DNA of 35,316 nucleotides from Candidatus Micrarchaeota archaeon. Lineage in GTDB: Archaea; B1Sed10-29; JAJRYS01. Below are positions 2 to 8,587 of this stretch, in pieces (within the stretch, counting starts at the first letter, position 1; every line of letters starts with the position of its first letter). The position numbers and the translations under genes are program-made. Below the pieces are notes generated by a model. The model made no database searches and was not told where the DNA came from. It saw only the letters and a list, made by a program, of their open reading frames with translations. The stretch is taken from positions 1-35,316 of the forward strand of contig CAZBZN010000006.1 of NCBI GenBank assembly GCA_964496415.1, written 5' to 3'.

Positions 2-1516
2 TATTATAGTTACTGCTAATCCAATTATTTTCTTTTTAATATTTTTATCCAGTTTTTTTCTTTCAATTTTTTGTTCTTGTTCTTCTTTTTTCAATACTCC
101 AGTGTCTACTAAGTAATCTATTGCAAATGAAATAAGTTCTTTTGAGTATTTCATTTCTGAGGAAAGTTTTTCAAGGTCTACTTCTCCTTTTTCTTCTTTT
201 ATCTTTTGCAGTACTTCATTTATGAAAGGATCTTTGACTTCTTCTTTTAGGATGTTGTACTTACCGCTTATTACTTCTTCTTTGATTAGTTTTTCTCCTT
301 TAGTAATTTCTTTTGTAAGGGTTTTAGCTTTTAATTGAACTATGAATAAGACTATTGCTGCTGTTGAAAGGACTAATATTAAGTATAAAAAGTAATGACT
401 TTCTCCAATTTCTTTAACCCATTTAGTGCTTTCATAAAAGTCTTCTGTCGTGTTTCCTTTAAGGGTAATTGTTTTTCCAGTAGGCTCTTCAAAGATTATT
501 TTATAACCTGGACTGCTTTTTATTCCAGCATAAGGATCAATGTCCTGCCAGTAATTATAGTATGCTCTTATCCATGAGTACATTTTTGAGTCTTTTTTCC
601 CGATTATTACTTTGCAGGGAAGTTCAAGTTTTTTACAGAGTTCTTTTGCGTAAGCAGTCATTCCAAGACTGTCTTTTTCACTTTCAAGGTTGACTTTTTT
701 TATTAAAGCAAATTCAGGGTCAGTGCTTTTTTTAGCATCTCTTAAAGCATTTAATAAGGTCTTTAGTTTGTCACCTGAATTAGTTACTTGCCTTACTCTC
801 CCGCTTGTTGTTATTATCTTATTAAAAGTTAATGGGTAAAGTTCTGTAGGGTAATCCTTTTTCTGCGTGGTGGAGTAAAAAGGATAAAAGTACACGTCGT
901 AATAGAATTTTTTGCCAGGTTCTAAGTTTACTGTTATCATAAGAGAATAACTTTCAGATGAAGTGACAGGAATCCCACTTACTGGAAGAGGATAACTTGC
1001 TTTCACGCCAAGACAAGGCCCTGCAAGTCCTTTTGAAAATACTAAGTAGTTTTCTTTTTTCTTGCTTAAAGCTGATGGAAAAAGAATACTGCCACTGTTA
1101 ATCAACCTTATAGGATAGCTTATTGATATTGTTTTTTTTCTTTTTCCAAGATTTATTACTTCGATTCTCGTTTTCACGTACTCATCATTGAATTCTATGT
1201 TTTCTTTTATGTTTATGTCTTCTTTTAAGTTTTCAAACTCAAACAAGTACCTGTTTTTTAACCCGCTTAGCATTTCTTCTTTTATTGTTGGCGAGAAAGT
1301 ATAAGCTTTTCCAGAAATCGACACTACTGGAACTACATTTATCTCATACGCATTGTTTATTATAACTGGTTTTGAGAGCACTGCAGGTGCTTTTGCAACA
1401 TAGTTTTCTCCTACTATTATGAATCCTTCTTCATGAAGCCCAAGACTTTTTATCGCGAGACCCTGGCTTGATAGGATTAAGATGATTATGATCATGTGGG
1501 CTTTTTTTATTTTCAT
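2..1516 (-). CDS. Secreted/membrane-anchored protein with degenerate transglutaminase-like domain (partial, runs off the left edge; not in ORF track)
   Basis: ATG at 1516 overlaps the thpR stop (ATGA). Signal peptide MKIKKAHMIIIILILSSQGLA. The same frame gives ...DSLGMTAYAKELCKKLELPCKVIIG...MYSWIRAYYNYWQDIDPY (TGase-like spacing), a TM helix YFLYLILVLSTAAIVLFIV, and a second hydrophobic stretch at the edge. I translated the two ends by hand; the middle was not checked codon by codon. Confidence 0.75.
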   Translation of the reverse strand, partial: MKIKKAHMIIIILILSSQGLAIKSLGLHEEGFIIVGENYVAKAPAVLSKPVIINNAYEINVVPVVSISGKAYTFSPTIKEEMLSGLKNRYLFEFENLKEDINIKENIEFNDEYVKTRIEVINLGKRKKTISISYPIRLINSGSILFPSALSKKKENYLVFSKGLAGPCLGVKASYPLPVSGIPVTSSESYSLMITVNLEPGKKFYYDVYFYPFYSTTQKKDYPTELYPLTFNKIITTSGRVRQVTNSGDKLKTLLNALRDAKKSTDPEFALIKKVNLESEKDSLGMTAYAKELCKKLELPCKVIIGKKDSKMYSWIRAYYNYWQDIDPYAGIKSSPGYKIIFEEPTGKTITLKGNTTEDFYESTKWVKEIGESHYFLYLILVLSTAAIVLFIVQLKAKTLTKEITKGEKLIKEEVISGKYNILKEEVKDPFINEVLQKIKEEKGEVDLEKLSSEMKYSKELISFAIDYLVDTGVLKKEEQEQKIERKKLDKNIKKKIIGLAVTII

Positions 1517-2052
1517 AATTCCACCTCAAACAAGGTCTCGTAGGTAGGACCTGCCTTATTTAATGTGCTTTTTATCAGTTCTATCTTATTAACCTTAACT
1601 TCTAATTTTAAGCTCTCGGCTAATTCCAATATTTTGTTCACGAGTTTTTCATCTGGTTTTTTCTTACATCTTGCAAGAGTGATGTGTGGAATGAATTCTC
1701 TTTTTTCTTTTAAGAAACCTATTTTTTCAAGCTTTTCTTCTAACTGTTTTTGAAGCTTGTTTAGTTCGTTAGCTTCTGCTTTTAGAAAAATCACTCTTAT
1801 GAAGCTCTTGCTTGGGAAAAAACCGACTCCTGTTACTTTTACTTTAAACGGGCGCTCTTTTATGGTTTTTAAAATTTTAGTTACTTCGTCGTATTGGCTT
1901 TTGCTTATTTCTCCTAAGAACTTTAAGTTAATATGAAGGTTTTCAGGCTCTACTGCTTTTATTCCCTTTTCTTTTTTAAGCAGATCTAGTATTTCGATTA
2001 TTTTTTCGTTACTTGGGATTCTTATTCCTATAAATGCTCTCATGTTATTCAT
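1513..2052 (-). CDS. thpR: RNA 2',3'-cyclic phosphodiesterase (2H family, LigT/ThpR)
   Basis: MRAFIGI start (ATG 2043 is an alternative start), ENLHINLKFLG, FIPHITLAR, KSTL...GPTYE. Confidence 0.92.
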   Translation of the reverse strand: MNNMRAFIGIRIPSNEKIIEILDLLKKEKGIKAVEPENLHINLKFLGEISKSQYDEVTKILKTIKERPFKVKVTGVGFFPSKSFIRVIFLKAEANELNKLQKQLEEKLEKIGFLKEKREFIPHITLARCKKKPDEKLVNKILELAESLKLEVKVNKIELIKSTLNKAGPTYETLFEVEL

Positions 2053-2078
2053 AAGGAGCGCTGGGTTTAAAATTTCTT

Positions 2079-2759
2079 CTAAATTCCTCTAATCTCTACT
2101 TTTTTGACATAAGCTTTCATTATTTCAGCAAATTCCTTAAGTTTTTTTGGAGGATAAGGGACAACATGGTTTGCTGCCAGCGTGTGTTTGTTTCTGAATT
2201 GCTGAAGGTAGTATTTTTCAGCTCCTTTTATTAGTTCCCCTATTTCATGAAAGTCTTGTTCTTTTAATGCTGGAAAGACAGTTGTTCTAAACTCATATTC
2301 TGGAGCTTTTTTCATTATTAATCCAATGCTTGAGGCTATTGCTTTTTCATCAACTTTGACTCCTGCTATTAATTCATATTTTTTTAGTGGTGCTTTGACA
2401 TCCATTGCAACATAATTAACTATTCCTAAGTCAAGGATTTGCTTAAGCATTTTAGGATTTGACCCATTAGTGTCAAGTTTTATTAAAAAACCCAGTTCAC
2501 GTACTTTTTCAATGAATTCAATCAAATCAAACTGAAGAGTGGGTTCTCCTCCTGTTATTTCAACAGCATCAATTACTCCTTTTCTTTTTTCCAAGAAAGA
2601 GAAAACTTCTTTTTCAGGAATCAAATGTTGTGAGCCGTTTATTATTTCAAAATTATGGCAGTAAGGGCATCTAAAGTTGCATCTTGGAGTAAATACTATG
2701 CTGCAGGCTTTTCCAGGGTAGTCTATGAAGGAGAGTTTTTCAAACCCAGCGATTTCCAT
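2079..2759 (-). CDS. nrdG: Anaerobic ribonucleoside-triphosphate reductase activating enzyme (radical SAM)
   Basis: SFIDYPG, CNFRCPYCHN (CxxxCxxC), ITGGEPTLQ, KLDTNGSNP, YEFRTT; lies downstream of nrdD. Confidence 0.93.
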   Translation of the reverse strand: MEIAGFEKLSFIDYPGKACSIVFTPRCNFRCPYCHNFEIINGSQHLIPEKEVFSFLEKRKGVIDAVEITGGEPTLQFDLIEFIEKVRELGFLIKLDTNGSNPKMLKQILDLGIVNYVAMDVKAPLKKYELIAGVKVDEKAIASSIGLIMKKAPEYEFRTTVFPALKEQDFHEIGELIKGAEKYYLQQFRNKHTLAANHVVPYPPKKLKEFAEIMKAYVKKVEIRGI

Positions 2760-2769
2760 GGTTTCACTG

Positions 2770-2898
2770 TCACATGCTTATTTTTACGTATGCCCTGTTC
2801 TTGAATTCTTCTTGTTTTCCATCATTCCACTGGTTTACAGGCCTTAAATAACCAACAATCCTTGAATACACCTCACATTTTGTTCTTTTCCCGTTCAT
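2770..2898 (-). CDS. Stand-alone glycyl-radical domain of class III RNR, 42 aa (MNGKRTKCEVYSRIVGYLRPVNQWNDGKQEEFKNRAYVKISM); not in ORF track
   Basis: Hand translation. Carries the NrdD radical motif YSRIVGYLRP and W-N-x-G-K-x-x-E-F. SD GGAGGTGA lies 7 nt before the ATG, which overlaps the nrdD TGA. Confidence 0.93.
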   Translation of the reverse strand: MNGKRTKCEVYSRIVGYLRPVNQWNDGKQEEFKNRAYVKISM

Positions 2899-4928
2899 TT
2901 TAAAGTCACCTCCACTTTTGCAACGTCTTTTACACCCATTTCAGCATCGCATATTGGGCAGTATTCATGTTCTCCAGGAAGATACCCGTGAATAGGACAA
3001 ATACTAAAAGTAGGAGTAATTGAAAGGTAAGGAAGTTGGTATCTTGAAAATACTTTACGTACTATTGTTTTTGCAGCTTCCTTGCTTAATCTTTCACCTA
3101 TAAAAGCATGGTATACTGTTCCTCCAGTGTATTTTGTTTGCAGTGGGTCTTGATGGTCAAGGATTTCAAACAAGTCAGCATTCCAATCAACAGGAGGAAG
3201 ACTTGAATTAGTGTAATAAGGTTTTGCTCCTTTTTTTACCTGTTCTTCGTTAGCCACGATTATTTCAGGATATTTTTTCTTATCTATTCTTGCCAGCCTG
3301 TAACTGGTTCCTTCTGCTGGAGTAGCTTCTAAGTTGAATAATTGACCTGTTTCTTCTTGGAACTCGCTTATTCTTTCTCTCATGAACTCAAGAACTCTTA
3401 TAGCAAATTCATGTCCTTGTTTTGATATGATGCTTTCACCTAACAAGTTTAAGCAGGCCTCGTTCATGCCTACTAAACCAATTGTTGAGAAGTGATTTTT
3501 CCAGTACTGTCCATAAGCTTGTTTTATTGATCTAAGGTAAAATCTTGAATAAGGATAAAGTCCCTGTTCAGTGTATCTTTCAATTATTTTTCTTTTTATT
3601 ATCAGAGAGTCTTTTGCAAGAATCATTAATTGTTCCAGTTTTTCGAAGAATTCAGTTTCATCTTTACTTAGGAAACCAATTCTCGGAAGGTTTATTGTTA
3701 CTACCCCTATGCTTCCAGTTAATGGGTTTGCTCCAAACAACCCGCCTCCTTTTTTCTTAAGTTCACGGGTGTCTAATCTTAGCCTGCAGCACATTGACCT
3801 TGCGTCTTCAGGTTTCATGTCAGAATTCACGAAATTAGCAAAGTAAGGAATGCCATACTTTCCAGTCATTTCCCAAAGAGCATCTAGTCTTTCATCATCC
3901 CATGGGAAGTCTTTTGTAATGTTATAAGTTGGAATTGGAAAAGTAAATGGTCTTCCGTTAGCGTCTCCTTCCATCATTACTTCTGCAAAAGCCCTGTTTA
4001 TCATGTCCATTTCTTCTTGGAATTCTCCATAAGTTTTGTCCATTATTTTTCCGCCGATTACTACTCCAACATTTTTTAGGTAAGAAGGAGGTTCTAAGTC
4101 AAGGGTTATGTTAGTGAAGGGAGTTTGGAATCCAACTCTTGTAGGGACGTTAACATTGTAAATGAACTCTTGCATGATTTGTTTTACTTCTTTATATTCA
4201 AGTTTATCATAGTAAATGAAAGGAGCTATGAGAGTATCAAAATTTGAAAATGCTTGAGCTCCTGCTGCTTCTCCTTGTAATGTGTAGAAAAAGTTAACTA
4301 CTTGCCCTAACAAGGCTCTTAAGTGTTTAGCTGGTCTTGAACTTATTTTTCCAGGCACTCCTGTAAAGCCGGTTATTATTAGGTCTTGAAGGTCCCAGCC
4401 AACGCAGTAAGCTGCCAGTGTTCCTAAGTCATGAATGTGGAAGTCTCCTTCTTTGTGTGCTTTGGCAATGTTCTCTGGATAGACTTTATTAAGCCAGTAG
4501 TTTGCTACTATTGTTGAAGAAATGTGAAAGTTTAATCCTTGTAAGGAGTAGGTCATGTTGGCATTTTCTTTTACTCTCCAATCTATTTGGTGTAAGTATG
4601 AGTCAATGATGTCAAAGTCATGCATCATTGCAGCGAACTCTCTTAGTTCAGCATGCTTTTTTCTATAGATTATGTATGCTTTTGCTGTTGCAGCATGCCC
4701 TTCTTCTATCAGTACTTTTTCAACAACTTCTTGGATGTCTTCAATTCCAGGAATGTTTATTTCATCGTACTTTTTGCTTAGTTTTTCAACAACTATTTCT
4801 GTGAGTCTTTCAGCTTCTTTTCTGTCTTTTCCCCCTACTGCTTGCGCTGCTTTAAAAATAGCATCTGTTATTTTTGTCTTGTCAAAGTCAACGATTCTAC
4901 CGTCTCTTTTTCTTACTTTGGTGAGCAT
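2895..4928 (-). CDS. nrdD: Class III anaerobic ribonucleoside-triphosphate reductase, catalytic subunit lacking the C-terminal glycyl-radical domain
   Basis: N-terminal ATP cone (VRKRDGRIVDFD), HIHDL, AYCVGW, finger loop RSMCCRL, NLEATPAEGTSYRLA, YYTNSS, YTGGTVYH, Zn site CPIH...CPIC. It then stops with no RxxGY motif. Confidence 0.95.
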   Translation of the reverse strand: MLTKVRKRDGRIVDFDKTKITDAIFKAAQAVGGKDRKEAERLTEIVVEKLSKKYDEINIPGIEDIQEVVEKVLIEEGHAATAKAYIIYRKKHAELREFAAMMHDFDIIDSYLHQIDWRVKENANMTYSLQGLNFHISSTIVANYWLNKVYPENIAKAHKEGDFHIHDLGTLAAYCVGWDLQDLIITGFTGVPGKISSRPAKHLRALLGQVVNFFYTLQGEAAGAQAFSNFDTLIAPFIYYDKLEYKEVKQIMQEFIYNVNVPTRVGFQTPFTNITLDLEPPSYLKNVGVVIGGKIMDKTYGEFQEEMDMINRAFAEVMMEGDANGRPFTFPIPTYNITKDFPWDDERLDALWEMTGKYGIPYFANFVNSDMKPEDARSMCCRLRLDTRELKKKGGGLFGANPLTGSIGVVTINLPRIGFLSKDETEFFEKLEQLMILAKDSLIIKRKIIERYTEQGLYPYSRFYLRSIKQAYGQYWKNHFSTIGLVGMNEACLNLLGESIISKQGHEFAIRVLEFMRERISEFQEETGQLFNLEATPAEGTSYRLARIDKKKYPEIIVANEEQVKKGAKPYYTNSSLPPVDWNADLFEILDHQDPLQTKYTGGTVYHAFIGERLSKEAAKTIVRKVFSRYQLPYLSITPTFSICPIHGYLPGEHEYCPICDAEMGVKDVAKVEVTLK

Positions 4929-4967
4929 GACTAATCACTTTAAGTCTTTTTTCAGGAGAATTTGGTT

Positions 4968-5078
4968 TTACTGGAGGGGAATGCTGGGTGAGCCTTCTTC
5001 ATCCAGTGGTTTTGTTTCTTTGAAGTAAACTTTTATTACTTCTCCTCTTACATTTTCAATTGTTTTTACTGTAAGCAT
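4968..5078 (-). CDS. Putative 36-aa leader/small protein upstream of nrdD (MLTVKTIENVRGEVIKVYFKETKPLDEEGSPSIPLQ); not in ORF track
   Basis: ATG 5078 preceded by strong SD GGAGGGG, stop TAA at 4968-4970; fills the gap between the nrd promoter and nrdD. Confidence 0.55.
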   Translation of the reverse strand: MLTVKTIENVRGEVIKVYFKETKPLDEEGSPSIPLQ

Positions 5079-5092
5079 TTTCTCCCCTCCAG
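4971..5092. repeat. Inverted repeat flanking the leader ORF
   Basis: ctggagggga (4971-4980) and tcccctccag (5083-5092) form a perfect 10-bp inverted repeat, extendable by atgct/agcat across a 4-nt bulge. Confidence 0.75.
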
Positions 5093-5094
5093 CA

Positions 5095-5141
5095 TTAGGC
5101 TGGTTAACAATCCTAAATCAACTATTATTTATTAATAAATA
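5095..5141 (-). promoter_or_regulatory. Putative nrd operon promoter with palindromic sites
   Basis: Perfect AT palindrome tatttattaataaata (5126-5141) containing a TATA-like box. Imperfect 22-bp palindrome ttaggctggttaacaatcctaa (5095-5116, 9/11 pairs) at the expected transcription start. Confidence 0.5.
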
Positions 5142-5157
5142 GGTTTGTTTTTCTAAC

Positions 5158-7005
5158 TTAGAATAGTTTTAAGAATAAGATTTCCTTACTTTTCAAAAGA
5201 TTTTTGTCACTAGTTTCGTAGAATGAGCCTGCATTATACAAAGGCTGTAAGGCAGAAAGCACGTCAATAAGCTTTTCATCATCAAGCTCTTGAAAGAAAG
5301 AAGACCTTGAAATATCCTCTTCAATCCCATGCTTTTTATTCTCAGCAGTGAATCTAGTAAGAGCATTAACGTTGTCAGACTCTCCTACAAGAACATGAAT
5401 CCCTTCTTCTTTTTTAAACTCCCTCAGCTTTTTATGAGTAAATCTTAGAATTCTTTCAGAAAAAACAAGACACTCTTTGTCATAATTCTCTTTTTTCAAG
5501 AAGAGCTTTGCTGCTGCAGAAAGACCTGTGAACAACACTACTCCTTTAAATCTTTCAATTTCAGCAACTGGTTTGCCTTCAAAACTCTGAGCAAGAAACT
5601 CAAGCATTTTCGTCTTGTAAGCTTTTTCTTTTACGAGTTTAAGTTTTAGTTTTACAGTTTCTTTAGTAAGTTCAAGCAATCTGCCTAATTTTTCATAAAA
5701 AGCATTATCATCAGGGTTTAATTTAGCTACTTTAGGCAAGTTAAGTGAAACTGTTTGAATAATGCCAGAACCAAGCCCATGCAATGAGTTCTCTTGAAAA
5801 GTCAAGTTTTCAACAAGAGAACTGTTTTTCATTTCTTGTCTTATATAATAAACAGGCCTTAGTTCTTTATCAATGAGTTTCTCAGGAACTTTGTTTCTAA
5901 GCTTCAAGCACACTGAAGGATGTCTGAATTCTCTTCCACTGTAATCTCCTTTTTTCATCATGTCTATGAAAACCTCAGCCAAAAGCAAGGCTTCATCATA
6001 ATAATTTTCATAAGTGTTTTTCTCTTCTCCTTTAGGGCCTATTGCTTTTTCTTCTTTCAAGAACTCAGGAAGCTCTACTTCAAGGTTTATTGCAAAAGTG
6101 TTATCATAATAATTAGCCCTGTTCAATTCATAAAGAAAAGTCTGGCAATACTGTTTTACCTGTTTTTTGCTTTTTCTACTAATGAAAGGCGCTAAGAAAA
6201 AATTAAAGAAGTCAAACCCGATTCCTCTTGCAACATAACTCTTTGCAGTGGTTAGAAACCTTGCGGCATGACTCATAGCCACTTCAGGATTTTTAGCAGG
6301 ACCAGTAGTAACCACTCCTGGCAAGACAAAACCATGCTTCAACAACACTCTCAAGTCAGGGTTAAACGCATAAGGCAAAGTAGCAAAATCCTCAATAGCA
6401 TGAATGTACAAGTCAGAACTAAGATAAGCAAGGCTAACCTCTTTTGAAAGAAGCTTGTTGATTACAAATTCCTCCATTATCCTATTGCCAAAAAGCTCAT
6501 TAAGCTCACCAGGGCTTTTTACTTCTTTCTTATCAATGATTCTCTTAATGTCAAACACTGGAATTCCAGCACGAGTATAATTGCTTTGAGCATTGATTAA
6601 TTTTCTTTCAAGCAACTCAGCATTAACCAACTCCCTAATCAAACTTGTTGAAGCAGTTCTAATTTGAGCCCTTCTGATTTCTTTTTCAACTTCTTTAGCA
6701 ATATCTTCTGCTATTGCTTTTGGTATTCTTGTTTCCTTTATGAGAGACTTTGTAATCTTATCCCTATTAAAAGTTTCAAGCACATGACTAGAAGTGATAA
6801 CTTCAATGGAATGATAACTTTCAAACTGAGAAGCAGCTTCACTGTCTATTTCTTTTAAAACACTTAGTATCTTTTTGTTGATCTCTAAGTCAGTTGCTTT
6901 TTCAGAAAGCTTTCCTTTAAGTCTTAAAGCTGCTTCTGATGCAATCCAAAAGCTTACTCCAGCTTGCCGGCATTTTTCAATAACAACATTCTCTGAAACA
7001 GCCAT
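5158..7005 (-). CDS. NrdD-like protein with tandem ATP-cone-like domains, apparently catalytically inactive
   Basis: ATP cone VITSSHVLETFNRDKITKSLIKET...LIRELVNAELL, YTRAGIPVFD, GPAKN, GIGFDFFNFFLAPF and TVSLNLPK resemble archaeal NrdD. No finger-loop Cys, Zn site or RxxGY motif. Confidence 0.75.
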   Translation of the reverse strand: MAVSENVVIEKCRQAGVSFWIASEAALRLKGKLSEKATDLEINKKILSVLKEIDSEAASQFESYHSIEVITSSHVLETFNRDKITKSLIKETRIPKAIAEDIAKEVEKEIRRAQIRTASTSLIRELVNAELLERKLINAQSNYTRAGIPVFDIKRIIDKKEVKSPGELNELFGNRIMEEFVINKLLSKEVSLAYLSSDLYIHAIEDFATLPYAFNPDLRVLLKHGFVLPGVVTTGPAKNPEVAMSHAARFLTTAKSYVARGIGFDFFNFFLAPFISRKSKKQVKQYCQTFLYELNRANYYDNTFAINLEVELPEFLKEEKAIGPKGEEKNTYENYYDEALLLAEVFIDMMKKGDYSGREFRHPSVCLKLRNKVPEKLIDKELRPVYYIRQEMKNSSLVENLTFQENSLHGLGSGIIQTVSLNLPKVAKLNPDDNAFYEKLGRLLELTKETVKLKLKLVKEKAYKTKMLEFLAQSFEGKPVAEIERFKGVVLFTGLSAAAKLFLKKENYDKECLVFSERILRFTHKKLREFKKEEGIHVLVGESDNVNALTRFTAENKKHGIEEDISRSSFFQELDDEKLIDVLSALQPLYNAGSFYETSDKNLLKSKEILFLKLF

Positions 7006-7041
7006 GAACTTATTTAAACATTCAGGGTTAAATAAAACCTT
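7006..7041. promoter_or_regulatory. Compact divergent promoter
   Basis: 36-bp gap between divergent ATGs, with TATA-like tatttaaa and ttaaataaa each roughly 25 nt from one start, implying leaderless transcripts. Confidence 0.5.
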
Positions 7042-7461
7042 ATGGACTTAACAGAAAATGATAGAAAAATTCTTGAACTTTTATCCAAAGACTCAAGAGC
7101 CTCTTATACAGACCTTTCAAAAGAACTTGGAATCTCAGATGTTGCAGTAAAAAAAAGAATAGACAAGCTTCTTTCAGAAGGAGTTATAAAAAACTTCACA
7201 ATAAACATTGACTATGAAAAACTTGGAAAACCAGTTTACGGCATAGTTCTTCTAAAGATTATTCCAAAAGAATTAGAAAGAGTGAAAGCCTTTCTTGAAA
7301 AAACAGAGGAAATAATAAGCAAAAAAAGAGTGCTTGGAGAATATGATTTCATAATAGAAATAGCAGCAGAGAGCATTACAAAACTTAAGGAATTCATAGA
7401 AGAAAAACTTGGAAATGTTAAAGGGGTAATAGAAACAAACACCCTGATTTTGGTAGAGTAA
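7042..7461 (+). CDS. Lrp/AsnC family transcriptional regulator
   Basis: DRKILELLSKDSRASYTDLSKELGISDVAVKKRIDKL HTH, GVIKNFT, and a GEYDF RAM domain. Confidence 0.93.
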   Translation: MDLTENDRKILELLSKDSRASYTDLSKELGISDVAVKKRIDKLLSEGVIKNFTINIDYEKLGKPVYGIVLLKIIPKELERVKAFLEKTEEIISKKRVLGEYDFIIEIAAESITKLKEFIEEKLGNVKGVIETNTLILVE

Positions 7462-7462
7462 A

Positions 7463-7753
7463 ATGAAAATCGAATGCGAAGTAAGACCAACAGAAGACAA
7501 AGAAAAACTCAAAAAGATGCTTTCAGCAGTATTCAAAGGAGTAAAATTCAAAGAAGAACAAGGAAAAATAACAGGCGAGATTTCAGAAAAAGATTTCCTC
7601 TCACTCTGCGAAGAAAAACAAACACTGATAATCCCACAAATGCTTGAAGAAAACAAAGAAGTAAAACTAAGCAAGCTAGCCTTATTTGCCGGAAAACTCG
7701 TCCCAGATGAAGATTTTCCGTTGGGGGCAGTTGTAGTAAAAAAGGAAAATTAA
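7463..7753 (+). CDS. UPF0201-like putative RNA-binding protein
   Basis: EVRPTEDKEK N-terminus; K-x-A-x-F-A-G-K and PLG near the C-terminus. Confidence 0.65.
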   Translation: MKIECEVRPTEDKEKLKKMLSAVFKGVKFKEEQGKITGEISEKDFLSLCEEKQTLIIPQMLEENKEVKLSKLALFAGKLVPDEDFPLGAVVVKKEN

Positions 7754-7780: not shown

Positions 7781-8587
7781 ATGAAGAGGATGTTTTTGTT
7801 TTTGGTGGTGTTGTCATCTGTTCTGGCTAGTGCTACGTTGGTTTATCCGAAGCATGTAATCATGAATTATGGCACTTACTTGGAGGATAACAATTATTTT
7901 TTAGGCGAGTATGACTTGGGGGACGTTGCTCCAGGTCAGGTGATTGAATTAGTGTTTTCCAGGAATACTGGGCCTAATAATACTGAGAGTTCTGCATCTA
8001 TTTTTTGGGAGTCAGCTGAGGTAAAACCTTTTCCTTACTCTTTCAAATTAAACCCAAAAAATCTTACTGTTAGGGTTTCTGTTCCAGAAACATTAAGAGG
8101 CGACCAGAAGTTTAATGTTACTCTTTATGGGCATGTTGGCACTATTGCTCCTCATTTGATTACTTTTAAGGTAAAAGTAAAGGAAGATGTTTTTTCTTTT
8201 GAAGCTCCTTCAAGTCTTGAAGTTGTTCAAGGGCATACTGAGTACTTTTTCATTAAGGTAAAAAGCAGTTCAGCTGCTTCTGATACTTTGATAATAAGGA
8301 AGCTTTCTGGAATTCCTTCAAAGTGGATTGATGGCAGGGAAGTTTTTTTAGGTCCTTTTGAAGAGAAGACTTTGAAGTTTAGTCTGACGCCTAACGAGGA
8401 AGGATATTACCCTGGTGGAATTGTTGTTGAAAGAAAGTCAAGCGCGTTGCGGGATTTCTTGAAATTGGATCTTAGGGTGAAGCCTTCTTTTGACTCTAAA
8501 CTTAAAGCTTTTTCAGAAGGTTATTCAGTTATTCCAGTAGTTCTTCAGCCGTTTTATTCTCTGATGTCTCTTTTAGGATTGTTATGA
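7781..8587 (+). CDS. Secreted/surface hypothetical protein, beta-rich (Ig-like), hydrophobic C-terminus
   Basis: Signal peptide MKRMFLFLVVLSSVLASA, alternating beta pattern, N-x-T/S sequons. Confidence 0.6.
   Translation: MKRMFLFLVVLSSVLASATLVYPKHVIMNYGTYLEDNNYFLGEYDLGDVAPGQVIELVFSRNTGPNNTESSASIFWESAEVKPFPYSFKLNPKNLTVRVSVPETLRGDQKFNVTLYGHVGTIAPHLITFKVKVKEDVFSFEAPSSLEVVQGHTEYFFIKVKSSSAASDTLIIRKLSGIPSKWIDGREVFLGPFEEKTLKFSLTPNEEGYYPGGIVVERKSSALRDFLKLDLRVKPSFDSKLKAFSEGYSVIPVVLQPFYSLMSLLGLL

Follow-up and report, generated by a model that had tools for sequence, protein, structure and literature searches.

Why would an archaeal genome keep, beside an active-type class III ribonucleotide reductase (RNR; NrdD), a second and intact NrdD-like gene from which all catalytic motifs have gone? 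The question was raised by the open reading frame (ORF) P0001, which occupied positions 5158..7005 of the minus strand in a 35,316-nt window of DNA from a Candidatus Micrarchaeota archaeon (the window was the whole of contig C6 of genome G000; 0.69 Mb, 91% complete); nrdD, a glycyl-radical peptide gene, and nrdG all lay downstream of it on the same strand. P0001 derives, as a non-catalytic form, from an archaeal class III RNR with tandem ATP cones; there is little doubt about either its loss of catalysis or the selection acting on it. The explanation that fitted best was that P0001 is a nucleotide-binding regulatory pseudoenzyme, which would report on the nucleotide pool and act on deoxynucleotide supply; judged from the sequence evidence, the chances of this reading being right are about even.

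The descent of P0001 from NrdD was evident from profiles, motifs, and fold. Pfam NRDD (PF13597; cut-off 26.2 bits) scored 136.9 bits over residues 163-543, which covered positions 7-413 of its 562; the NrdD equivalog TIGR02487 gave 152.7 bits, below its cut-off of 326.35, and 533.6 bits for the neighboring NrdD P0002, to which P0001 had 25% identity. The ESM Atlas model of the exact P0001 sequence (pTM, the predicted template-modeling score, 0.73) matched NrdD clusters with TM scores of 0.85-0.87 over residues 1-615 or 17-615, and a profile comparison against PDB (E 1e-22 to 1e-13) matched the solved NrdDs of P. copri (8P23), T. maritima (4COI/4U3E), and phage T4 (1H78). The cone-core linker (YTRxGLPxYD) and the NrdD-type barrel filled residues 135-615 (5161..6603), as delimited by Pfam, motif alignment, and the Atlas model, and the core retained PAK(N/H), FDFFNxFxAPF, KQxxQTFLYELN, and SLNLP. 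An original prediction made for this ORF had described NrdD barrel landmarks, and the Pfam score and the Atlas model both recovered them.

The catalytic apparatus was absent from this barrel. The finger-loop motif with the catalytic Cys has been defined as MGCR or MCCR (available text of bioRxiv 10.1101/2022.04.23.489257), and HxHD (the triphosphate motif), the TPAE-type loop, and the NxN flap are substrate-binding elements in P. copri NrdD, where the NxN flap and the TPAE-loop Glu also anchor the glycyl-radical domain (PMC11226230, as far as its available text goes). The alignment of P0001 to P0002 displayed the following changes: (i) FHIHDL of P0002 read LYIHAI in P0001, HxHD being retained solely in the other subclade of the paralog family; (ii) AAYCVGW, containing the beta-A Cys, aligned with LPYAFNP, so that Cys was replaced by Ala (Ser in most orthologues); (iii) the MCCRL finger-loop stretch was deleted or replaced by SSLVENLTF, with zero Cys; (iv) TPAE, YYTNS, and the NxN flap were missing, TPAE and NxN also family-wide; and (v) the chain stopped ahead of the Zn ribbon and the RxxGY glycyl-radical motif. 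P0001 had four Cys in total, at residues 12, 287, 366, and 512, and none in the finger-loop region 381-412. The change from HIHDL to YIHAI, the Cys-free finger loop, and the absence of the Zn site and RxxGY had all been read from the ORF beforehand, and each was recovered here. The catalytic motifs were missing in 25/25 tabulated orthologous ORFs as well as in P0001, and in loci without an nrdD cassette no small glycyl-radical ORF was found beside the paralog. With these parts gone from its sequence, P0001 is unable to reduce ribonucleotides by the known radical mechanism.

Loss of all catalytic motifs might also mark a decaying pseudogene or an assembly artefact, an explanation that was contradicted by the data and is scarcely credible. 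The P0001 frame was intact as predicted (ATG start, 615 aa plus stop), and it was also open in X2, an independent metagenome run from a second study, which displayed the same ORF with four substitutions (two synonymous and two conservative ones, I415V and T402A) and zero indels. Among 40 related genomes searched by tblastn, an orthologue was found in 26 of the 30 belonging to the same class, with full-length frames across the class at 28-51% identity; it was not found in G005, G010, G012, and G017 (78, 91, 81, and 62% complete, respectively). The ratio of nonsynonymous to synonymous substitution rates (dN/dS) was 0.098 for the paralog, compared with 0.096 for NrdD, 0.14 for NrdG, and 0.155 for the glycyl-radical peptide, all from the pair L025 versus L031, dS being saturated or undefined in all other species pairs. 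A retained pseudo-enzyme, as the original prediction had suggested, was thus well supported by the motif losses in 25/25 orthologues, the presence in 26/30 genomes, the dN/dS value, and the fold; neither a Cys at the finger-loop tip, nor absence of the NrdD fold, nor a dN/dS near 1 with decaying homologues was found.

Phylogenetic trees were built with FastTree on 100 rows and with IQ-TREE in its quick mode on 40 rows; two class I/II RNRs, a winged-helix protein of G033 (see below), one partial paralog, and one intein-bearing NrdD were dropped before the 100-row tree. The paralog family formed a single clade (FastTree support 94; quick IQ-TREE SH-aLRT 100), and its branching followed family, order, and class, with two subclades corresponding to the order of the window and to the rest of the class, respectively; inheritance of the paralog was vertical. 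P0002 was placed in a distant clade (branch 1.26-1.48), alongside proteins named from bacteria, which confirmed the earlier view that P0001 is not a recent copy of its neighbor. The suggested resemblance to methanogen-type NrdD found weak backing: one structural neighbor cluster in the Atlas was mostly Methanobacteriota, and the nearest active relatives were NrdDs of archaea that have tandem cones and a single Cys in the finger loop (MGCR/MACR; L046 with 31% and L048 with 28% identity). A profile search of 1.84 billion representatives returned 949 proteins at E<=1e-30, and the best 150 of them were classed by motif as 78 dead, 37 active, and 35 mixed, a rough classing by regular expressions in which the mixed ones made up 35/150. 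Public records labeled family members "anaerobic ribonucleoside-triphosphate reductase" or "hypothetical protein." In one dead paralog-type protein, P0148 (971 aa), the N-terminal core was interrupted near position 149 of the NRDD profile by an intein bearing a LAGLIDADG domain, and several active relatives of 1100-1700 aa looked intein-bearing too.

The N-terminal region of P0001 had been read as tandem ATP cones with the first one truncated, and this reading held. The second cone (residues 67-134; 6604..6807) was recognized by the Pfam ATP-cone profile over residues 68-134 (29.0 bits against a cut-off of 25.8), by hhalign against canonical cones (90.9%), and by its conservation; in the hhalign alignment, the canonical hairpin K-R was matched by T71-S72. 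The first cone (residues 1-66; 6808..7005) was a remnant without the beta-hairpin. In hhalign, residues 1-67 reached a probability of 2.4% with canonical ATP cones and of 0.4% with cone 2; the assignment as a truncated cone holds through transitive homology, because BLASTP placed residues 6-65 on residues 24-83 of L046, an active 759-aa archaeal NrdD from G037, inside its Pfam ATP-cone stretch (10-86). The missing hairpin was still present in the deeper relatives P0014 and L041, and within residues 1-66 of the family C12, A15, and G16 were invariant and F19 and W20 nearly so.

Conservation in the paralog family had moved from the catalytic barrel to cone 2 and the dimer/specificity-site helices. 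The mean top-residue frequency was 0.70 in cone 2, 0.61 in the N-terminal core, 0.43 in the finger-loop region, and 0.39 in the C-terminal tail, while in 31 active NrdDs the order was reversed, from 0.46 in the cone, the lowest value, to 0.61 in the finger loop, the highest. In NrdD, it is the PAK and KQxxQxFxYxxN helices that form the interface of the dimer as well as the allosteric specificity site. PAK was conserved as P96/A87/K87 in 31 family members versus P96/A74/K87 in the 31 active NrdDs, and both Gln of the KQxxQ helix were 100% conserved in either set. These helices being kept and the catalytic motifs lost, it is the regulatory half of the enzyme that survives and the catalytic half that does not. 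In P. copri NrdD, specificity-site residues 290 and 298 sit on the helix of the second motif, and the hairpin that becomes ordered upon effector binding directly precedes PAK (available text of PMC11226230, the latter point combined with the alignment). By alignment, residues 290 and 298 map to Q285 and E293 of P0001; the numbering offset of +4 applied here was verified at the NxN flap, HxHD, and Asn298.

From these data the following route to a sensor may be proposed. The protein has shed its radical parts (the glycyl-radical domain, the Zn ribbon, both Cys, the NxN flap, and the TPAE loop, plus HxHD in P0001) and kept the barrel scaffold, cone 2, the cone-core linker, and the two dimer/specificity helices; P0001 would then dimerize and bind a (d)NTP at the specificity site. 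That a (d)NTP effector acts at the retained specificity site has, by the pattern of retained residues, an even chance at best and perhaps slightly less. Among the roles offered by the original prediction, the (d)NTP sensor fitted best: cone 2 and the specificity helices were the most conserved parts, and the part of the claim that would rest on ATP cones of the standard kind was weakened by their non-canonical sequences.

Two other roles had been proposed, one being that of a heterodimer partner of NrdD. P0002, the active-type large subunit in the window (2895..4928, minus strand; 677 aa), contained the MCCR finger loop, TPAE, and the Zn site (NCBIfam NF006126, 1056.5 bits; Pfam NRDD, 611.7 bits over profile positions 1-530 of 562). 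In the form of an obligate pseudo-subunit, P0001 would pair with such an NrdD via its dimer helices and tune its allostery, much as Rnr4 of yeast does for Rnr2; the dimer and specificity-site helices were indeed retained, and the paralog lay directly upstream of nrdD in the window, G001, G003, and G004 and within five genes of it in 6/26 loci. A catalytic RNR was found in all 26 paralog-bearing genomes, but only 18 of them had a canonical NrdD, while in the other eight (G006, G007, G011, G015, G016, G020, G021, and G030; 61-92% complete) the paralog was the sole PF13597 match and the catalytic RNR was of class I/II (PF02867). These eight genomes argue against an obligate NrdD partner and equally against a dock for the glycyl-radical peptide. 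Moreover, the NrdDs present alongside the paralog came from clades far apart from each other (type A, type B, or none), whereas its own inheritance was vertical and its interface motifs were constant. The obligate pseudo-subunit is therefore disfavored and has a low probability.

The second of these roles was that of a dock, store, or sink for a free glycyl-radical peptide. The active NrdD of the window was naturally split: its glycyl-radical segment was encoded by a separate 42-aa ORF, P0003 (2770..2898, minus strand; RIVGY; Pfam NRDD profile positions 529-560, 41.6 bits), with a GGAGGTGA site upstream and an ATGA overlap with the nrdD stop, and run X2 repeated the nrdD-peptide junction with zero indels. 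Small glycyl-radical ORFs also followed NrdDs of two clades in seven related loci (L017, L025, L031, L033, L043, L050, and L051), and further relatives had stops ahead of the glycyl-radical segment; in L025 the split cut through the Zn site, so that Cys2 of the peptide would be the fourth ligand. The arrangement is reminiscent of GrcA, the stand-alone glycyl-radical protein of pyruvate formate-lyase. P0001 is a barrel without a glycyl-radical domain of its own, the domain being frequently encoded by a separate small ORF in this lineage, and the peptide gene lay two genes downstream of P0001. Against a docking role, the holders of the glycyl-radical domain (the NxN flap and the TPAE Glu, according to the available text of PMC11226230) were lost, P0001 had no Cys to accept the radical, and the split NrdD retained its own Zn ribbon for the peptide. 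In addition, PF13597 detected no glycyl-radical segment in the paralog-bearing genomes G006, G011, G020, and G021, and the eight genomes in which no canonical NrdD was found showed no peptide either. The dock or sink is thus disfavored too, and very improbable.

The link of the paralog with RNR genes does not depend on the RNR class. The ancestral gene order was LigT - paralog | Lrp - 116-aa gene - 264-aa gene - Elp3-like, and between the paralog and LigT there were either nrdD-peptide-nrdG cassettes with NrdDs of different clades or a lone NrdG-like gene. Downstream of the paralog, NrdG-type genes were found in 11/26 loci and NrdD in 6/26, G001 and G004 being two more cases; in G031, the order was nrdD-nrdG-class II RNR-paralog.

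A radical-SAM (S-adenosylmethionine) partner of the NrdG type was also considered, the paralog being a regulator or scaffold of the activase or joining it in a radical reaction without a glycyl radical. NrdG-type genes were the most recurrent insertion beside the paralog (11/26 loci). A second, divergent NrdG-like radical-SAM gene was observed by the paralog in five loci (L034 5235-5912, L036 5165-5836, L038 5192-5857, L023 4213-4950, and L030 8959-9657). In G018, G019, G027, and G029, every canonical NrdD had its own NrdG (196-222 bits in TIGR02495), and the extra NrdG-like gene on the paralog side scored 121-170 bits; G021 also had one beside the paralog, with no NrdD found. These extra genes kept CxxxCxxC and GGEP intact and did not belong to the starred clade that 11 canonical NrdGs formed, and an NrdG-like gene without any NrdD found was present in G006, G020, and G021. 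On the other side, G000 had two NrdGs only, each by an NrdD, one of them being P0004 (2079..2759, minus strand; 226 aa; TIGR02495 210.1 bits against a cut-off of 131.15), and no dedicated NrdG-like copy was found next to the paralog in G000 or in the rest of the subclade of the window; G011 had none above 41.9 bits. The paralog also lacked the known activase target (the glycyl loop) and the Cys, the extra gene may be a leftover of an ancestral nrdDG operon that still serves other NrdDs, and the missing NrdDs could sit in unassembled parts of the genomes. A partnership of this kind is accordingly improbable.

A fixed partner gene of the paralog encoded an Lrp/AsnC-family regulator. The Lrp/AsnC gene of the window (7042..7461, plus strand; 139 aa; Pfam HTH_24 52.8, AsnC_trans_reg 50.2, and HTH_AsnC-type 48.0 bits) stood head-to-head with the paralog. 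Its orthologue (86-150 bits) was adjacent and divergent in 24/26 paralog-bearing genomes of the class; in G021 it lay at a contig end, in a position consistent with adjacency, and the four class genomes without the paralog gave no Lrp match above 60.1 bits. The same Lrp was head-to-head with the nearest active tandem-cone NrdD (G037) and preceded the RNR cluster in G031; the pairing with an active NrdD indicates that the Lrp pair predates the loss of catalysis.

The two genes shared a 36-bp upstream region (7006..7041) with two opposed TATA-like boxes (TTTTATTTAA ... TTTAAATA), each about 25-30 nt before a start codon, and the same layout recurred at the orthologous loci, the gap measuring 32-93 bp in 23 loci (window included). 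This region would serve as an overlapping bidirectional promoter for leaderless transcripts. In three loci, the Lrp-paralog spacer contained a 17-bp palindrome, GGTT(C/A)G-N5-C(G/T)AACC (L025 10698-10714, L031 3160-3176, and L033 10088-10104). In the f9 genomes, the spacer palindrome GGTTCG-N5-CGAACC was unique or nearly so genome-wide, and the wider pattern GGTTMG-N5-CKAACC was counted once each in G023, G026, and G018, three times in G024, and zero times in G028; the G018 copy (G018:C38:79142-79158) lay between the paralog and the NrdG-like gene, upstream of the latter. The palindrome is likely the operator of a local regulator.

The Lrp pairing, together with winged-helix relatives of the paralog (see below), points to transcription as the output of the proposed sensor, and the NrdG-like neighbors point to the activase. 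Neither the conserved Lrp pairing nor the age of the family nor the winged-helix relatives had figured in the original prediction. The most likely route would be control of the locus via the paired Lrp regulator, with P0001 as a co-sensor or as the target of Lrp, and a less likely one would be action on NrdG-type activases.

Being a target of Lrp would also suit a constrained protein with a role unrelated to nucleotides, near which RNR genes would lie by synteny. The whole neighborhood was in fact syntenic, with LigT, the Elp3-like gene, and the 264-aa gene present in 13-22 of 26 loci, and both cones were non-canonical. Three observations told against such a role: the retained motifs belonged to the NrdD specificity site, one and the same spot had received RNR cassettes of different kinds, and related dead NrdDs in other phyla lay by nrdD, class I/II-type (PF02867) RNR, or pyrBI. 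This explanation is unlikely, if a little less so than the partnerships with NrdD or NrdG.

The reading of P0001 as a nucleotide-binding regulator has to be weighed against a number of points that do not favor it. First, hairpin Lys7 and Arg8 of P. copri NrdD contact phosphates (available text of PMC11226230), and this K-R pair was T-S in cone 2 of the family (I-T-S in P0001), as likewise in the closest active relatives; with the hairpin of cone 1 missing, both cones were non-canonical, and ATP/dATP sensing via the cones is therefore doubtful. Second, Gln stands at chain position 294 of P. copri NrdD, while the available text of PMC11226230 names Glu290, so that the assignment of Q285 carries a numbering doubt; the read-out residue Asn298 was Glu in the family (Glu also in 32% of the 31 active NrdDs), and loop 2 was short and variable. 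Third, P0001 contained no recognizable DNA-binding domain. Fourth, G016 lacked the Lrp pairing, plain regulator-target adjacency or block inheritance can explain that pairing where it occurs, and the (near-)uniqueness of the palindrome to the locus in the f9 genomes gave no sign of a wider RNR regulon. Finally, the intact extra NrdG-like gene beside the paralog in the other subclade is unexplained by a pure sensor model.

The sister clade of the window family (support 82-91) consisted of further dead NrdDs, in which an N-terminal winged helix (DUF7347/ArsR-like) was followed by one VRTS-type cone and an NrdD-like barrel; the finger-loop Cys, TPAE, and the Gly motif were gone, and the Zn ribbon was retained. 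A scan for this winged-helix family, in which each species was represented by one genome, yielded 545 confirmed stretches, mostly titled Bathyarchaeia, from which 80 loci (L055-L134) were kept. Neighbors in these 80 loci included pyrB in 42 and pyrI in 18, and an NrdD-like ORF followed directly in 13, comprising about 12 active NrdDs of three clades and one dead fragment. In the complete genome G033, the winged-helix dead NrdD (L054 4870-6969) preceded a class I/II-type (PF02867) RNR, and no NrdG was found in that genome at E<=1e-25. Among the best 150 of the 949 representatives, a winged helix occurred with 36 dead, four mixed, and zero active proteins. A single origin of all dead forms was not rejected by the approximately unbiased test (p 0.546; the group was defined after the first tree).

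P0001 and the winged-helix family had in common a barrel without catalytic motifs, a VRTS-type cone, the YTRxGLP linker, and RNR genes nearby, but they differed in that the winged-helix family had a DNA-binding winged helix and a Zn ribbon and had replaced both Gln of the KQxxQ helix, which the P0001 family kept. No winged helix was detected in P0001 (no Pfam helix-turn-helix match; hhalign 0.2% for residues 1-67). The winged-helix dead NrdDs, of which no description was found in open-access papers and bioRxiv, are a candidate archaeal nucleotide-responsive transcription factor.

A wider reading takes in both groups: dead class III reductases might be an old archaeal superfamily of nucleotide-pool sensors controlling deoxynucleotide and pyrimidine genes. 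Its parts would be as follows: (i) the Bathyarchaeia sensor, fused to a winged helix of its own, would be the archaeal counterpart of bacterial NrdR; (ii) the sensor of the DPANN class would act in trans with a dedicated Lrp/AsnC protein, inherited from an ancestral lrp-nrdD pair; (iii) some lineages would have added an NrdG-like radical-SAM protein of their own; and (iv) P0001 would be the ligand-sensing subunit, downstream of which the nrdD-peptide-nrdG cassette landed and so gained the same control. This extension is tentative and, taken as a whole, rather doubtful.

The remaining features of the locus were as follows. Within the paralog-nrdD spacer, i.e., the nrdD leader (4929..5157, minus strand), lay a 36-aa small ORF (4968-5078); it had a strong ribosome-binding-like site, GGAGGGGAG, and a 12-bp stem (GCUGGAGGGGAG and its complement) enclosed it. 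The leader folded with a minimum free energy of -52.3 kcal/mol (z = -3.97; 0/200 shuffles as good), and the small-ORF peptide had one weak syntenic match in the loci and genome searched, in L044 between the paralog and nrdD (E 0.67). The Lrp gene was followed by two genes without Pfam match, 7463-7753 and 7781-8587 (both plus strand; 96 and 268 aa), the counterparts of which were syntenic in 16/26 and 22/26 paralog loci, respectively. Elsewhere in the genome, a 3.5-kb contig (G000:C38) carried another NrdD, this one unsplit, at 1083-3383 (642 bits over the full profile), together with an NrdG of its own; G000 thus had a total of three NrdD-like genes in 0.69 Mb, and a class I/II RNR was not found among its genes. 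P0001 was unmatched in PADLOC, which gave no sign of a defence system, and Rfam had zero matches across the window.

To our knowledge, most archaea lack NrdR, and the control of archaeal RNR is poorly known. The dead NrdD, its fixed Lrp partner gene, and the winged-helix-fused relatives are candidates for such control. P0001 also makes a clear case of an enzyme of which the catalytic half was discarded and the allosteric half was kept, under selection matching that on the active enzyme; no description of a dead class III NrdD family was found in open-access papers and bioRxiv preprints. There is a practical side as well: because the paralog was the sole PF13597 match in 8/26 genomes, metabolic reconstructions of these small symbiotic archaea could credit such genomes with a class III RNR that is absent.

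Compared with known systems, P0001 shares with class III NrdD the homologous barrel, an N-terminal ATP cone, the PAK and KQxxQxF helices, and NLP after the finger loop, but unlike it has neither of the two Cys, no NxN flap, TPAE, YYTNS, Zn ribbon, or glycyl-radical domain, and a degenerate HxHD. In function it would resemble at most the allosteric half of NrdD or a nucleotide sensor of the NrdR type. Inactive RNR homologues are also found in yeast Rnr4 (an R2-like partner of Rnr2) and in betaherpesvirus M45/UL45 (a dead class I large subunit). Like these, P0001 is RNR-derived and has lost its catalytic residues, and it would have been retained for a non-catalytic role; unlike these class I proteins of eukaryotes and viruses, it comes from an archaeal class III enzyme and keeps the allosteric parts. 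NrdR is a protein of about 150 aa with a Zn ribbon and one canonical cone, and it binds DNA itself. It acts in bacteria as the ATP-cone repressor of nrd operons (available text of PMC2795772). P0001 differs from it in its 615 aa, its non-canonical cones, and the lack of both a Zn ribbon and a recognizable DNA-binding domain; the Zn_ribbon_NrdR profile did not match P0001, and since the same search detected the domain in another protein, P0018, it was able to find it. What P0001 has in common with NrdR is an ATP cone and a genetic tie to RNR genes whatever their class, and by this analogy the dead NrdDs, if they regulate RNR expression, are a possible functional analogue of NrdR.

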